Shown: positions 4,780 to 37,169 of the stretch, piece by piece
Numbering within the stretch: the stretch's first letter is position 1
How the letters are laid out: every line of letters begins with the position of its first letter
Sequence record: OX638288
From: Escherichia phage UP19
DNA length: 64,000 nt
Reading direction: 5' to 3' (one strand)
The notes under the pieces: generated by a model
Seen by the model: the letters and a program-made list of their open reading frames with translations, nothing else
Databases searched by the model: none
What the model was told of the DNA's origin: nothing
Translations under genes and position numbers: made by a program

Positions 4780-4869
4780 GTAGCAAAATGTGGTGCCTTA
4801 TTTGGATGGCCTGTATCCCTATTATTTGTGTATGTTTTAGTTTATTGTTGTGGAAATTAGCATAAATCA

Positions 4870-6243: not shown

Positions 6244-6393
6244 ATGAATATTTTACAAGGTTTTGCTGCGGGTATTTGGACTTATCTAGGTATTTGGACT
6301 ATTACGACGGGTGAAACTTCGGTCATTTCTCAGGCCATTCCACAATTCATATTGGCATTTGTTCTGATTCTACAGGCCTTTACCAAAAAATGA
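6244..6393 (+). CDS. small hydrophobic membrane peptide (49 aa), copy 1 of tandem unit
   Basis: MNILQGFAAGIWTYLGIWTITTGETSVISQAIPQFILAFVLILQAFTKK; hairpin plus GAGGAAA ribosome-binding site. Confidence 0.5.
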   Translation: MNILQGFAAGIWTYLGIWTITTGETSVISQAIPQFILAFVLILQAFTKK

Positions 6394-6538: not shown

Positions 6539-6700
6539 ATGATTATCATAGTTTTTATTGAACTTATTACGGCTATAGTCTGTTCGGTTTGCTTCTTTTT
6601 AGGTGTGTGGACCCCTGGTCAGGTATTCTTAAGTTTTCTGTTTATTGGCTGGGTTCTTTCTACTTTTGTCGGTTTACTTAAGATGATTAAAAATGATTAA
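6539..6700 (+). CDS. small hydrophobic membrane peptide (53 aa), copy 2 of tandem unit
   Basis: MIIIVFIELITAIVCSVCFFLGVWTPGQVFLSFLFIGWVLSTFVGLLKMIKND; same hairpin plus ribosome-binding-site leader as copy 1. Confidence 0.5.
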   Translation: MIIIVFIELITAIVCSVCFFLGVWTPGQVFLSFLFIGWVLSTFVGLLKMIKND

Positions 6701-6833
6701 GAAAATCTTGGGCTACTCGGTAGCCCTTGCTGCTTTATTGGTAGCACTGTATTATGGAGTAATATTCGGTCTTATCCAAGTTGTGCTTTTTATTTCCGAT
6801 GTTATTATGGTTATTCATTCACTAGTATGGTAA
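6693..6833 (+). CDS. small hydrophobic membrane peptide (46 aa)
   Basis: [46 protein letters not shown]; overlaps preceding stop; the homologous position in unit 1 (6390..6419) is frameshifted. Confidence 0.4.
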   Translation: MIKKILGYSVALAALLVALYYGVIFGLIQVVLFISDVIMVIHSLVW

Positions 6834-6837
6834 AATT

Positions 6838-8217
6838 ATGGCTGATGTAATTGATACCCTTTTTAAACAATCCTTAGATGTTTACGATGATGCTTTTACT
6901 CGTCGTGACTTAAAAAGCATTATCGACAATGAAGCGCTGGCTTACGCAATGTATACTGTCGAAAACCGCGCCATTCCAAATATGATTGACGGCTTTAAAC
7001 CAGTGCAACGTTTTGTAGTTGCTCGTTGTCTTGATATGGCTCGTGGTAATAAAGAAAAATTCCACAAACTGGCTTCTATTGCAGGTGGTGTAGCCGACCT
7101 TGGATATCACCATGGTGAAGGTTCTGCTCAGGAAGCAGGGGCTTTGATGGCTAACACATGGAACAACAACTTCCCACTGTTGGATGGACAAGGCAACTTT
7201 GGTTCTCGTTTGGTTCAAAAGGCTGCGGCCTCTCGATATATCTTTGCTCGTATTGGAAGTAACTTTGCAAAAGTTTATAAGGATACGGAATATGCTCCGG
7301 TTCATGCAGATGTTGAACACAAGCCACCGGCTTTTTATCTGCCTATTATTCCTACTGTTCTTCTTAATGGCGTTTCCGGTATTGCAACCGGTTATGCAAC
7401 TAATATTCTTCCTCATAGTTTTGATTCTGTTAAGAAAGCTGTATTGCAAGTTCTTCAGGAAAAACGAGTAACCAAGCCGAAGGTGGCTTATCCGGAATTC
7501 CGTGGTGATGTTGTTGAGATTGAACCAGGAAGTTATGAGATTCGTGGAACGTATAAGTTCACATCTCGAACCCAAATGCATATCACGGAAATCCCATACA
7601 AATACGACCGTGAAACATATGTGGCCAAGATATTAGACCCTTTAGAAGACAAAGGGTATATCACATATGACGACGACTGTGACGAGAATGGTTTCGGCTT
7701 CAAGGTAAAAATTCGTAAAGAATATGAATTACCTACTGAAGAAAATAAGAAGCACGAAAAAATCATGAAGGACTTCGGATTAATCGAACGTCGTTCACAA
7801 AACTTAACAGTTATTAATGAGAAAGGTAAGCTCAAGGTTTACGAAGATGCTGTTGAACTGATTCGTGATTTTGTTGAGGTCCGTAAGACCTTTGTACAAA
7901 AACGTATTGATGGTAAAATCATCGAAACCGAACAGGCATTTAAACTGGCACTGGCTAAAGCCACATTTATCAAAGATGTTATTGATGGTGTAGTGGTTAT
8001 CCAAGGTAAGACCCGTAAGGTTTTAACCGAAGAATTAGCCGGTAATAAAGTCTACGGCGAATACGCTGATAAACTCGTAGCAATGAATATTTTCCATATC
8101 ACGTCCGATGAAGCTAAGAAACTGGCTTTGGAAGCCAAGGCTAAGAAAGAAGAGCATCAATACTGGAAAACCACTGATGTTGTAACTGAGTATGTTAAAG
8201 ATTTGGAGGCTCTATGA
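6838..8217 (+). CDS. 52: DNA topoisomerase II medium subunit gp52 (GyrA-like)
   Basis: 459 aa (T4 gp52 442 aa); N-terminal region resembles the GyrA/ParC cleavage-religation domain. Confidence 0.9.
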   Translation: MADVIDTLFKQSLDVYDDAFTRRDLKSIIDNEALAYAMYTVENRAIPNMIDGFKPVQRFVVARCLDMARGNKEKFHKLASIAGGVADLGYHHGEGSAQEAGALMANTWNNNFPLLDGQGNFGSRLVQKAAASRYIFARIGSNFAKVYKDTEYAPVHADVEHKPPAFYLPIIPTVLLNGVSGIATGYATNILPHSFDSVKKAVLQVLQEKRVTKPKVAYPEFRGDVVEIEPGSYEIRGTYKFTSRTQMHITEIPYKYDRETYVAKILDPLEDKGYITYDDDCDENGFGFKVKIRKEYELPTEENKKHEKIMKDFGLIERRSQNLTVINEKGKLKVYEDAVELIRDFVEVRKTFVQKRIDGKIIETEQAFKLALAKATFIKDVIDGVVVIQGKTRKVLTEELAGNKVYGEYADKLVAMNIFHITSDEAKKLALEAKAKKEEHQYWKTTDVVTEYVKDLEAL

Positions 8218-8318
8218 GCCTTGGAGTCGAGTTCTTGCTACTCTGTATCTTTGCTGTTATCCTAGGCCTGGCAACAGGCTTAGCTATAGGTTTAATAGCG
8301 GCCCACTTTAAAAAGTAA
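8214..8318 (+). CDS. small hydrophobic peptide (34 aa)
   Basis: MSLGVEFLLLCIFAVILGLATGLAIGLIAAHFKK; ATGA overlap with gp52 stop; followed by terminator. Confidence 0.4.
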   Translation: MSLGVEFLLLCIFAVILGLATGLAIGLIAAHFKK

Positions 8319-26066: not shown

Positions 26067-26094
26067 AGACCTATCAACTAATGAGGAAATTAAA

Positions 26095-26322
26095 ATGGCT
26101 AAGGTTAATATTGATATCGTTGATTTTGAATACACTTACGAAGTTATCCGCAATCGTTATCCTTCTTTGTGTATGACTTACATTAAAGATACCCAATTCT
26201 GTAGTATGCAAATTGAAGTTCAAGGTCCTCTTGAAGACCTTACCCGTTTTATGGCTGATGAATATTGTGATGGTATGCACCCTGAAGACACCAAATTTTA
26301 TATGGGCTTAATTCAAAAATAA
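26095..26322 (+). CDS. hypothetical protein
   Basis: 75 aa ORF. Confidence 0.5.
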
Positions 26323-32554: not shown

Positions 32555-32968
32555 ATGAAAGAAATCGCAGATGAATTTAGCTTTATCAAGTACGTTACAC
32601 TGGAGCTCCAAACAGATGCTACTATAGCCCCTATCACAGTTCCAAATAAACAAAATGTCATATATGCTATAGCGGTTGATGATATACTAGTCTACATCGG
32701 GAAGACTAAAAATCTTCGTAAGCGCATCAACTACTACCGAACAGCTATTAATCGTAAGGACCAAACGTCGGATTCGACCAAGTCCATTCTGATTCATGAA
32801 GCATTAATGGCAGGTAAAAAGGTAGAGTTCTATGCTAGACAGTGCTTTAATCTGTCGATGACCAACGAACTTGGAACTATGTCAGTTGAGACCATGTCTC
32901 TTGAAGAGCCAATGTTCATAAAGAAATTTAATCCACCTTGGAATACCCAACATAGGATAAAGCAATGA
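32555..32968 (+). CDS. denA: endonuclease II (GIY-YIG family)
   Basis: 137 aa (T4 EndoII 136 aa); GIY-YIG-like ..VIYAIAVDDILVYIGKTKNLRKRINYY..; position after nrdB. Confidence 0.75.
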   Translation: MKEIADEFSFIKYVTLELQTDATIAPITVPNKQNVIYAIAVDDILVYIGKTKNLRKRINYYRTAINRKDQTSDSTKSILIHEALMAGKKVEFYARQCFNLSMTNELGTMSVETMSLEEPMFIKKFNPPWNTQHRIKQ

Positions 32969-34113
32969 TTGAATTATATGATAACTTAATGGGCCTGGTT
33001 AAAAACTCGACTAAATCTAAGTTCTTCTTTAAAGACTTTCAGAGTGCGCTAGGAGTCAACTATCGCATCTTTAGTTATAACTATGCATCGTACAGTGATT
33101 GGTTGGAAGACGGCGCACTAGAGTGCCGAGGCATTATGTTTGAAATGGACGAGAACGGTCCGGTACGTATTGCTGCTCGTCCTATGCAAAAGTTCTTTAA
33201 CCTCGACGAAAACCCGTTGACCATTGGTTTGGATTTATCACAAGGAAATATCGACCTCGTAATGGCTAAGGAAGATGGTTCCTTGATTTCTACCTTCATG
33301 GACCGACAATATCTTTCTGTTAAATCTAAAGGCTCTATCCATTCATCAATGGTGCATGATTCTTTACGTTTCCTTCGACTCCCTGAAAACGAGGCCTTCG
33401 CTGCTCGTTTAGAAGAAATTACTAAAGCAGGCTATACATGTAACCTCGAGTATGTTTCGCCTACTAACCGTATTGTGCTGGCTTACCAAGAAACAAACCT
33501 TATCTTACTTAACGTTCGTAATAACGAAACGGGTGAATATATCCCTTACGCTGAACTGTTTAAAGATGGCGCTCTGCGTAAGCATTTGGTTAAAAGCTAT
33601 GAACTCTCTGAAGGTGATTTTGTTGACAATATCCGTAAACAAGAGGGTATTGAAGGCTTTATCTTTGTACTTAAAGATGGCACGTTCTTTAAACTCAAAA
33701 CCGCTTGGTATAGCGCACTGCATCATACCAAAGATTCCATTAATAATAACGAACGTTTATTTGAAGTTGTAGTGGCTGGTGGAACTGATGACCTCCGAGG
33801 TTTGTTCAGTACGGATTCGTTTGCTATTGAGAAAATCAATACATTTGAACGTATCCATTTAGACTACTTAGAACAGTCCTTGGCTTTGTTAGAAGCAGCA
33901 TATTCTCAGCTCAAGGGCCGCGACCGTAAGGACTACGCTGTTACCGGTCAGTTAATCCTCAAAGACTTCCCAGGGCTGTTCTCTATTCTTATGCAGGCGT
34001 ACGTAGGCGGTATTAATTATGATACGGTCGTAGACCAGATTAACTCTGTGTTCTTGAAAAATCATAAGGCCCAAATCCCTGAAAAATATTTGAAAGAAAT
34101 TGTTATAGAGTAG
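32965..34113 (+). CDS. rnlA: RNA ligase 1 / tail fibre attachment catalyst (gp63)
   Basis: 382 aa; ...YRIFSYNYASYSDWL...ECRGIMFEM...PVRIA.RPM.KFFNL.ENP... matches recalled T4 Rnl1. Confidence 0.9.
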   Translation: MIELYDNLMGLVKNSTKSKFFFKDFQSALGVNYRIFSYNYASYSDWLEDGALECRGIMFEMDENGPVRIAARPMQKFFNLDENPLTIGLDLSQGNIDLVMAKEDGSLISTFMDRQYLSVKSKGSIHSSMVHDSLRFLRLPENEAFAARLEEITKAGYTCNLEYVSPTNRIVLAYQETNLILLNVRNNETGEYIPYAELFKDGALRKHLVKSYELSEGDFVDNIRKQEGIEGFIFVLKDGTFFKLKTAWYSALHHTKDSINNNERLFEVVVAGGTDDLRGLFSTDSFAIEKINTFERIHLDYLEQSLALLEAAYSQLKGRDRKDYAVTGQLILKDFPGLFSILMQAYVGGINYDTVVDQINSVFLKNHKAQIPEKYLKEIVIE

Positions 34114-34171: not shown

Positions 34172-34672
34172 ATGAATATGCAAATGATTACTAACGAAAT
34201 GGTTGTTAAAGCTTTTGGTGATTCTACTGACGGTATCCAAGTTTTTAAAGGTTCTCGTGCGGTAGGTTACCTAACCGATCTTCGTGTTACTTTAGCCAAA
34301 AATGCTAAAAAGAAAATCAAGCAAAAAGAATATTCTACCCGTTATGCAGAAGAAAAGCGTGAAGCCATGCCTGAAGCTGTTAACTCTATGGTTGAGTTTC
34401 TCCAAAACAACCTTTCTAAGTATGATGCTGAGGTATTCATTAATATCAGTCAGCCTAATGTTAAAATCGCAGGAATCACATTCTATTTGATTTGCGACCC
34501 ATTAAGTGACAAGTTTAATCGCCTTGGCATTTCCAGCCCTTACCATACTGCTGAAGAATTGTGTGTGATGTTTGAAACATACAAAATTCAGTGTGAAAAT
34601 CCTAAAACGGTTCTTATCAACTCCCTGTCACGTGATGACATCATCGAGATTATTACCAAATGTCTAAATTAA
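34172..34672 (+). CDS. hypothetical protein (possible Alc by size and position only)
   Basis: 166 aa (T4 Alc 167 aa); no sequence-level confirmation. Confidence 0.4.
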   Translation: MNMQMITNEMVVKAFGDSTDGIQVFKGSRAVGYLTDLRVTLAKNAKKKIKQKEYSTRYAEEKREAMPEAVNSMVEFLQNNLSKYDAEVFINISQPNVKIAGITFYLICDPLSDKFNRLGISSPYHTAEELCVMFETYKIQCENPKTVLINSLSRDDIIEIITKCLN

Positions 34673-35013: not shown

Positions 35014-35300
35014 TTAAATTGGCTGCTGTAATGTTATCTATTGGCTTGTTAGTTGGATGTGCCCAGGACATCCCTGTAGCGCCTAAGCAACAACTCCACC
35101 CTTCATGGCCACAACCTATTGCCGAACATAATGTTAAATGGCAGGTTAAGGTAATCGACGGTAAGGCTTGGGTTGGTATGCCATTTGAAGACTCGCAAGA
35201 ACACAGAATTTGGTTGAACGACGTAAAAAGATATGTACAAGACCAGAAATCTATGTTATGTTATTATCGTTCCGGACTAAAAGAGGAGAAGTGCAAATGA
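35010..35300 (+). CDS. o-spanin (Rz1-like outer-membrane lipoprotein; T4 pseT.2 equivalent)
   Basis: signal peptide with lipobox LLVGC; ATGA-coupled to i-spanin. Confidence 0.7.
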   Translation: MIKLAAVMLSIGLLVGCAQDIPVAPKQQLHPSWPQPIAEHNVKWQVKVIDGKAWVGMPFEDSQEHRIWLNDVKRYVQDQKSMLCYYRSGLKEEKCK

Positions 35301-35404
35301 TTGAAGCCTGTATCGATGGGTGGGACGTTTTTAAATTCGGTGCTGCATGTTTTTGCTTTGGTATCGTGTTCAGCCTGTGTATGAATGGTATTTTTGGGAA
35401 GTAG
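35297..35404 (+). CDS. small hydrophobic peptide (35 aa)
   Basis: MIEACIDGWDVFKFGAACFCFGIVFSLCMNGIFGK; strong AAGAGGAGAA ribosome-binding site; in frame with ORF track 35210..35404. Confidence 0.5.
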   Translation: MIEACIDGWDVFKFGAACFCFGIVFSLCMNGIFGK

Positions 35405-35433
35405 TTTACAAACTCTTGGGAGCAGAGTATAAT
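35404..35433 (+). promoter_or_regulatory. early promoter (GTTTAC / TATAAT) in hairpin
   Basis: GTTTACAAACTCTTGGGAGCAGAGTATAATGCTCC. Confidence 0.5.
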
Positions 35434-35467
35434 GCTCCTACGGATTATAAAAATTGAGGAAATTATT

Positions 35468-35950: not shown

Positions 35951-37168
<1,218 letters not shown>

Positions 37169-37169
<1 letters not shown>

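Follow-up and report, generated by a model that had tools for sequence, protein, structure and literature searches.

A small membrane-protein gene in an exchangeable slot behind the spanin genes of Escherichia phage UP19 and other T4-like phages

Small membrane proteins of phages, such as T4 Imm (83 amino acids), HK97 gp15 and P22 SieA, act on superinfection or on the membrane proteins of the host. Among small bacterial membrane proteins, TisB, Ldr and Ibs are type I toxins, while AcrZ and MgrB are small membrane regulators. In T4, early and middle promoters drive transcription of the strand and region that hold the spanin genes. The T4 spanins encoded by pseT.3 and pseT.2 alone complement lambda Rz/Rz1, and the outer-membrane spanin (o-spanin) relies on two cysteines and on disulfide isomerisation (PMC6139136). 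The subject here is a small open reading frame (ORF) of 35 codons that lies directly behind the homologs of these two genes in a stretch of 64,000 nucleotides from Escherichia phage UP19 (sequence record OX638288), called the window below. The window is that of a JS98-like Dhakavirus, with 99.9% identity to Escherichia phage EcWhh-1 and 90-94% identity to other JS98-like Dhakaviruses. An initial annotation, made from the letters alone, had described the small ORF as an unannotated gene for a hydrophobic peptide, coupled in translation to the spanin genes and hence perhaps involved in lysis or membrane regulation.

The small ORF is very probably a true gene, already catalogued, whose product is a membrane microprotein with a single helix. 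Its product matches PHROG 23289 with residues 1-35 on profile positions 1-35 of 35 (hmmscan E 1.7e-19, 70.5 bits). Entries of that family (EcWhh1_45, MN04_00235 and MX01 ORF221) are the same gene, in the same position after pseT.2, and do not differ from it. The ORF is an annotated coding sequence ("hypothetical protein") in EcWhh-1, MN04, UGJNEcP3, MX01, ABTNLsp5, PSD2002 and fDHCT2; it is left uncalled in the records of JS98, VR25, SP18, AnYang, KIT01 and Bp7. The word "unannotated" was therefore right for the ORF track that the initial annotation had used, but wrong for GenBank and for PHROG. A search with the 64-amino-acid in-frame extension as protein query returned only two clusters, and an exhaustive HMMER search of 1.84 billion representatives returned one true relative and two spurious repeats. 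The small ORF is evidently dropped by most gene callers. Searches of the literature on pseT.1, pseT.2 and pseT.3, and on small membrane proteins near o-spanins, yielded nothing on it.

Translated directly, positions 35297-35404 give MIEACIDGWDVFKFGAACFCFGIVFSLCMNGIFGK and then a stop (TAG), exactly the peptide first reported. The ORF is conserved in syntenic phages, and its frame is never disrupted; it thus withstands both of the refutations that the initial annotation had named for it. A tblastn search found 86 phage records with the peptide, all 86 matches being full-length, at 57-100% amino acid identity. The 38 loci that were collected reduce to 27 distinct nucleotide alleles encoding 20 distinct peptides, and these 27 alleles contain no in-frame stop, against 4-63 stops in the five other frames. 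The ratio of nonsynonymous to synonymous differences per site (pN/pS) is 0.31 in the proposed frame (pS 0.52, pN 0.16), compared with 1.10 and 1.03 in the other two sense frames, which have 43 and 63 stops. Antisense frames range from 0.48 to 1.61, the lowest value being expected because it comes from the codon-aligned antisense frame. Alleles are 102 or 105 nt long and nothing else, with whole codons (3 nt) as the sole indels. When an equal number of substitutions is placed at random, all alleles stay open in ~2.5e-4 of simulations; the number used, 238, is the minimum on a minimum spanning tree, and recombination makes the count approximate. Invariant residues use several synonymous codons, four each at G8 and G22.

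The strongest single evidence for coding comes from Kuravirus NJ01 and its close relative 172-1. These 77-kb podoviruses both carry a 34-amino-acid homolog, MNEVCTGWDLIRFAAACFCFGIIFSMCMHGIFGK. Relative to sister kuraviruses, the copy is a 117-nt insertion made of the ORF and a duplicated ribosome-binding sequence, TTGAGGTTAA, and it has its own GAGG Shine-Dalgarno sequence. Only NJ01 and 172-1 matched among Kuravirus records, and the sisters pEC-N1203-2Af.1 and MN05, checked directly, are without the insertion. In comparison with the Kuravirus copy, synonymous sites are saturated (pS 0.79), while pN is 0.18; despite synonymous changes and wholly different flanking DNA, the peptide still ends in G-I-F-G-K. 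Since the peptide is kept in a different DNA context, neither the adjacent promoter nor RNA structure can be the sole source of its conservation. A precise, ORF-sized unit was moved into the early-gene arm of these two phages. It sits on the leftward strand, 3.9 kb away from the right genome end, and in the region examined it adjoins no gene annotated for a spanin or for lysis. In phiEco32-like phages, the right-end arm is an early cluster of diverse genes, unassigned in function and thought to serve host takeover (PMC8948821).

The peptide consists of an acidic, cysteine-containing N-terminal tail (residues 1-10), a hydrophobic helix (residues ~11-33) and an invariant C-terminal F-G-K. The single transmembrane (TM) segment of the initial annotation agrees with this one hydrophobic stretch and with an AlphaFold2 model from a four-sequence alignment, which predicts one helix over residues 3-33 (mean predicted local distance difference test score, pLDDT, 77.6). 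Conservation is concentrated in an N-terminal M-x-E-x-C-x-x-G-W-D, where Cys5 is invariant, in a central F-C-F-G-I, and in a C-terminal G-(I/L)-F-G-K. Positions 4, 6, 7, 11-13, 16-17, 24-25, 27, 29 and 30 vary. A small-xxx-small or glycine face was considered as an interaction surface and dropped, the conservation moment being not significant (permutation p ~0.75). One basic residue stands on either side of the helix, and charge does not decide the topology; the acidic tail would slightly favour an N-out orientation.

Searches of Pfam (E<=1), NCBIfam (E<=10) and PDB sequences gave no match to the peptide. No copy was found in E. coli complete genomes, in PLSDB plasmids, or among 185,579 bacterial and archaeal species, each represented by a single genome. 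The family is phage-restricted. A degenerate-motif scan of metagenomes gave two true copies, both in T4-like contexts, plus one spurious match. Several known identities were also tried. The peptide is no inner-membrane spanin (i-spanin), having 35 residues in total, the one helix over residues 3-33, and no extramembrane domain. Neither is it an o-spanin or u-spanin lipoprotein: it has no basic n-region, and its lipobox-like G-A-A-C18 is unconserved, with phenylalanine at position 18 in several alleles. As for holins and antiholins, the peptide has one transmembrane domain (TMD), a C-terminus of only G-K, no Pfam holin match (E<=1) and no adjacent endolysin gene. No Pfam homology to superinfection-exclusion proteins such as T4 Imm was seen (E<=1).

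The start of the gene is built into the end of its neighbor. The initial annotation had reported a ribosome-binding site followed by an ATG that overlaps the o-spanin stop codon, and both are indeed there (Table 1), with 8 nt between GGAG and ATG. The ATGA overlap supports the view that this is a junction for translational coupling, as was first proposed: the arrangement suits coupling of the small ORF to the o-spanin gene by termination and reinitiation. This coupling arrangement is kept in all T4-like copies. In VR25 and two further loci (L042 and L044), 8-nt overlap junctions are found, where a 1-nt change rewrites the o-spanin C-terminus, neither ORF being broken. The in-frame upstream extension, which begins with a TTG at 35210, has no Shine-Dalgarno-like purine run ahead of it, and had correctly been set aside. 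The Shine-Dalgarno sequence falls, of course, in conserved o-spanin codons (L-K-E-E-K-C-K), and T4 has the same element, where it serves pseT.1. Since it is made of o-spanin codons and is present in T4 as well, it is real but not independent evidence for the small ORF.

Downstream, the boundary is equally sharp. The small ORF reaches from the o-spanin stop exactly to the -35 hexamer of the promoter that comes next, which is of the early type, begins directly after the TAG and so sets the limit of the cassette on the 3' side. Tequatroviruses, T4 among them, have in this slot the unrelated, soluble, 75-amino-acid PseT.1 at the same ATGA junction; in one metagenomic contig (L010), a PseT.1-type gene occupies the slot, and the promoter behind it is the one seen in the window. 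The contents of the slot are therefore alternative cassettes, PseT.1 in T4 and in that contig, the small ORF in Dhakavirus and Gaprivervirus. The initial annotation had pointed to the T4 pseT.1-pseT.3 region for comparison; T4 has no homolog of the peptide. PseT.1 belongs to a different PHROG (2347). It shares with the small ORF the slot, the ATGA overlap with pseT.2, the embedded Shine-Dalgarno and the lack of an assigned function, but is twice as long and hydrophilic, with a maximal 17-residue Kyte-Doolittle mean of 0.39 versus ~2.0-2.4 in those alleles of the window family (family A below) that were scored. Homology of the peptide to the PseT.1 N-terminus was considered and rejected: only the first two residues (M-I) are common, and the PHROG matches differ (23289 versus 2347).

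Independently of the spanin backbone around them, the alleles in the slot are exchanged and also recombine within the gene. Across Dhakavirus and Gaprivervirus, nucleotide diversity (pi) is ~0.3 in the ORF interior, versus 0.05-0.15 in the 3' half of the o-spanin gene and ~0.04 in the nearly invariant promoter. One and the same peptide allele can accompany a Dhaka-type or a Gapriver-type o-spanin, and pairwise divergences of the two genes correlate at 0.14. Within the Dhaka-type group, the o-spanin gene has pS 0.26 and pN 0.025, the small ORF pS 0.53 and pN 0.15; divergence of the small ORF inside this group is as large as between genera. Five different peptide alleles occur together with a single i-spanin TMD sequence, and the AnYang allele is an intragenic mosaic with a VR5-type 5' half and a JS98-type 3' half. 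Covariation of the peptide alleles with the i-spanin TMD or with the o-spanin clade was looked for, and none was seen.

Two loci deserve mention beside these. In vB_EcoM_005 (NC_055783; L016/L021/L072), the o-spanin is truncated to 63 amino acids by an in-frame deletion of ~99 nt, with the small ORF intact. The deletion recreates the ATGA junction and removes the part that carries, by homology to T4 PseT.2, the two essential cysteines. The phage may truly be defective in its spanin, or the deletion may stem from misassembly; the record has only 155 kb. In contig L044 (4109-4260), the small ORF is kept, while both the promoter-like sequence behind it, TTGACT...TATAAT, and the gene that comes next are other ones. 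The flank changes right after the stop codon, so that the recombination breakpoint coincides with the 3' end of the ORF.

What might such a peptide do? On balance, it is probably an autonomous accessory microprotein of the inner membrane, exchangeable, and used for host takeover or phage-host conflict. Here, the small ORF would be the last cistron of an early/middle transcription unit that runs through alc, pseT.3 and pseT.2, a view that follows from the use of early and middle promoters in the T4 region. No late-promoter motif, TATAAATA, occurs on the + strand between 28966 and 40167, and so none lies within 6 kb upstream of the operon. Ribosomes that terminate on the o-spanin gene would reinitiate at the ATGA by way of the Shine-Dalgarno hard-wired in the C-terminal o-spanin codons, and the peptide would be inserted post-translationally into the inner membrane. 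There, it would act autonomously, its helix and short, acidic, cysteine-bearing tail binding a membrane component of the host or of a competing phage. Its role would be an accessory one, for example in exclusion, in anti-defence or in the modulation of a membrane protein, rather than that of a dedicated spanin subunit. The mechanism of binding and conflict is, of course, the least certain part of this proposal.

This would be a more comfortable proposal were it not for several points that weigh against it. The conflict or host-partner role is argued from three things only, the shuffling of the alleles, their deep ages and the Kuravirus context, and relaxed constraint on lipid-facing residues, together with recombination between conserved flanks, could be the source of much of the same diversity. 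The conserved positions do not cluster on a single face of the helix (p ~0.75), and so define no interaction surface. The early timing of the NJ01 copy would follow from synteny only. Finally, unrelated micro-TM ORFs recur in the post-spanin slot of Karamvirus, of Tegunavirus and of the lineage of a 175-kb phage (L078), and this recurrence favours a role linked to the spanins or to the envelope.

The last point is the heart of the best surviving alternative, which is the one that the initial annotation had suggested. Here, the peptide is a regulator linked to lysis or to the spanins, made in step with the o-spanin, that tunes the spanin complex, its disulfide isomerisation, or the timing or inhibition of lysis. 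We regard this as possible but rather unlikely. The retention of the ATGA coupling in all T4-like copies fits it, as does the invariance of Cys5, given that the T4 o-spanin depends on two cysteines and on disulfide isomerisation (PMC6139136). Further, three mutually unrelated micro-TM families occur exactly in this slot across Tevenvirinae genera. Family A is that of the window. Family B, MRK(F/M)TLGAKLFC..., has 32 amino acids, is found in 37 Karamvirus-type records and corresponds to PHROG 26334; it shows the marks of coding (pS 0.65-0.89 versus pN 0.20-0.28) and is annotated in CC31 (CC31p227) and PG7 (PG7_241). Family C, MNTIIFIAILVF..., has 23-25 amino acids and belongs to Tegunavirus. 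Families B and C stand in tandem in L078, each coupled through ATGA. Roughly 7 of the 38 small ATG ORFs outside the ORFs of at least 80 amino acids in the window are hydrophobic, which gives a rough P of ~0.03 for three independent families in one slot, a value that is suggestive rather than conclusive. The families share the slot, the coupling to the o-spanin and one hydrophobic helix (23-35 amino acids), but have no detectable homology with the window peptide. The N-terminus is basic in family B (MRK...), which lacks a polar C-terminus; in family C, it is the C-terminal half that is basic. Because their charges are distributed differently, their topology likely differs from that of the window peptide.

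Much else speaks against a lysis regulator. The T4 spanin pair alone complements lambda Rz/Rz1 (PMC6139136), the T4 slot is occupied by the soluble PseT.1, and the slot is empty, apart from a hairpin or the next gene, in several T4-like lineages (L064-L067, L070, L071, L073, L076, L077 and L079). The Kuravirus copy lies in an early arm and, in the region examined, near no annotated spanin or lysis gene, the peptide does not covary with the o-spanin or with the i-spanin TMD, and the peptide gene of vB_EcoM_005 is intact despite the truncation of its o-spanin. The recurrence of small ORFs may, moreover, need no shared function, for the Shine-Dalgarno and ATG built into the slot could explain it by themselves. 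The codons of the conserved o-spanin C-terminus themselves supply a Shine-Dalgarno and one or two ATGs (AAATGY, AAATGA), which makes the site a natural one for the birth or capture of small ORFs; the start codons of families B and C are formed by conserved o-spanin K-C or K-stop codons. A bolder version, in which families A, B and C together are a hitherto unrecognised third membrane component of the spanin operon, repeatedly born or captured at an o-spanin "landing pad" (LKE[E/D]KCK-stop) and tuning envelope disruption or lysis inhibition, seems to us unlikely, and somewhat more so than a lysis-linked role for the window peptide.

A toxin- or holin-like peptide that depolarises the membrane, in the manner of TisB, Ldr or Ibs, and so shuts down the host or helps to trigger lysis, is improbable. 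By analogy, a length of 35 amino acids, a single hydrophobic helix and several small or glycine residues might recall small pore-forming peptides, and families B and C would be even more like Ibs or ShoB in composition. However, Pfam, with its small-toxin families (E<=1), and NCBIfam (E<=10) gave no match to any type I toxin family (Hok, Ldr, TisB, Ibs or ShoB). The peptide also lacks the cationic amphipathic character of many toxins, its only basic residues being K/R13 and K35. In both types of phage, the gene lies in early or middle units, and a phage dependent on an energised membrane would suffer if depolarisation came so early.

That the ORF makes no functional protein, being a chance frame or a translated spacer that holds ribosomes up to the hairpin and promoter and is conserved as DNA or RNA, is strongly disfavoured and very improbable, for even though the o-spanin codons impose a Shine-Dalgarno and an ATG that would have the downstream sequence translated anyway, the last codons adjoin the upstream region of the promoter and could be constrained as DNA, and the annotation of the ORF is inconsistent between records, the purifying selection is frame-specific with synonymous variation at invariant residues, stop-free survival by chance is rare in the simulations, the Kuravirus copy keeps the amino acid sequence (G-I-F-G-K included) with other flanks and its own ribosome-binding site, and the ORF interior is the most variable DNA of the region, not the most conserved.

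The genes around the cassette are in Table 1. The 160-amino-acid gene that follows lies outside the cassette, and its homologs are found downstream in most of the T4-like lineages examined as well. The promoter that drives it overlaps a hairpin, with the -10 hexamer mostly in the loop. The fold itself has a z of -1.87, which is not significant alone. Two metagenomic contigs (L045/L046) have a compensatory change from G:C to C:G at 35422/35435. In TH41 (L039), the whole hairpin is inverted, and TATAAT is thereby lost from the + strand; Karamvirus has a hairpin with a UUCG loop at the equivalent place. Such changes suggest that the stem itself may be under selection, at the level of RNA or of DNA, and in the transcript from upstream the hairpin may form a 3' RNA structure. 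An intrinsic terminator was rejected: the terminator scan gave no call, and there is no U-tract. In the RefSeq record of T4 (L017 1801-1814; T4 133300-133313), 14 bp at an early promoter between cd.2 and cd.3 are noted as "inverted complement of previously reported sequence," which, as an analogy, recalls the inversion of the hairpin loop in TH41. Elsewhere in the window, five further strongly hydrophobic ATG ORFs of 25-49 amino acids lie between ORFs of at least 80 amino acids, one example being MSLGVEFLLLCIFAVILGLATGLAIGLIAAHFKK at 8214-8318. These may be uncalled membrane microproteins or chance frames.

Table 1. Features of the window and related small ORFs in other records. Coordinates are those of the window unless another record is named; L numbers are our own handles.
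Feature	Position	Strand	Remarks
rnlA	32965-34113	+	
alc	34172-34672	+	
pseT.3-type i-spanin gene, 117 aa	34660-35013	+	PHROG 739, E 2e-36; annotations in relatives
pseT.2-type o-spanin gene, 96 aa	35010-35300	+	upstream cistron; PHROG 812 "Rz-like spanin", E 1.7e-43; same annotation in relatives
Shine-Dalgarno AAGAGGAGAA	35281-35290	+	within o-spanin codons K-E-E-K
ATGA start/stop overlap	35297-35300	+	small-ORF ATG (35297-35299) with o-spanin TGA; read from the sequence
Small ORF, 35 codons	35297-35404	+	PHROG 23289
Promoter TTTACA-17-TATAAT, sigma-70/T4-early type	35405-35433	+	11/12 consensus, best in a 3.5-kb scan
Hairpin GGGAGCA-GAGTATAA-TGCTCCT	35418-35439	+	-10 hexamer mostly in loop
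Gene, 160 aa	35468-35950	+	PHROG 4482, no function recorded; driven by the TTTACA-17-TATAAT promoter
Gene, 106 aa	35947-36267	+	
pseT polynucleotide kinase	36264-37169	+	
Further small hydrophobic ATG ORFs	4788-4865, 6244-6393, 6693-6833, 8214-8318, 26081-26176	+ (all)	
Kuravirus NJ01 copy	NJ01 73485-73586 (L035 2490-2616)	leftward	between two small early-arm genes; unannotated in both records
Micro-TM ORFs of other genera	L068/L069 1479-1577; L083 489-587; L084 492-590; L074 1485-1556; L086 495-572; L078 1493-1655		

For annotation, the consequence is a small correction: some Dhakavirus and Gaprivervirus records call a real gene for a 35-amino-acid membrane protein that other records skip, among the latter that of the type phage JS98 and several RefSeq entries. 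For phage evolution, the locus offers a clean example of a microprotein as an exchangeable cassette, with alleles that pass between genera independently of their neighbors and with a precise, ORF-sized copy in a podovirus that is unrelated. O-spanin genes of the T4 type end in what serves as a built-in translation start, and unrelated hydrophobic microproteins are found at this place in several genera. Should these peptides affect lysis or superinfection, a component would be added to a well-studied pathway. Should they have no such effect, the slot would be a natural case for studying how tiny membrane proteins originate and spread in phages.

Among described systems, TisB, Ldr, Ibs, AcrZ and MgrB share with the window peptide its length class and its single hydrophobic helix. 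Unlike these type I toxins and small regulators, however, the peptide has no homology to them, no copy in bacterial genomes or plasmids, and no antisense-RNA arrangement that is apparent. With T4 Imm, HK97 gp15 and P22 SieA, the comparison runs the other way. The window peptide is much smaller than these, has a single helix, and shows no sequence similarity to them (Pfam E<=1). Nevertheless, all three are small, membrane-embedded, non-essential and early proteins of a kind whose genes are often variable and horizontally exchanged, and this is how the window gene behaves.

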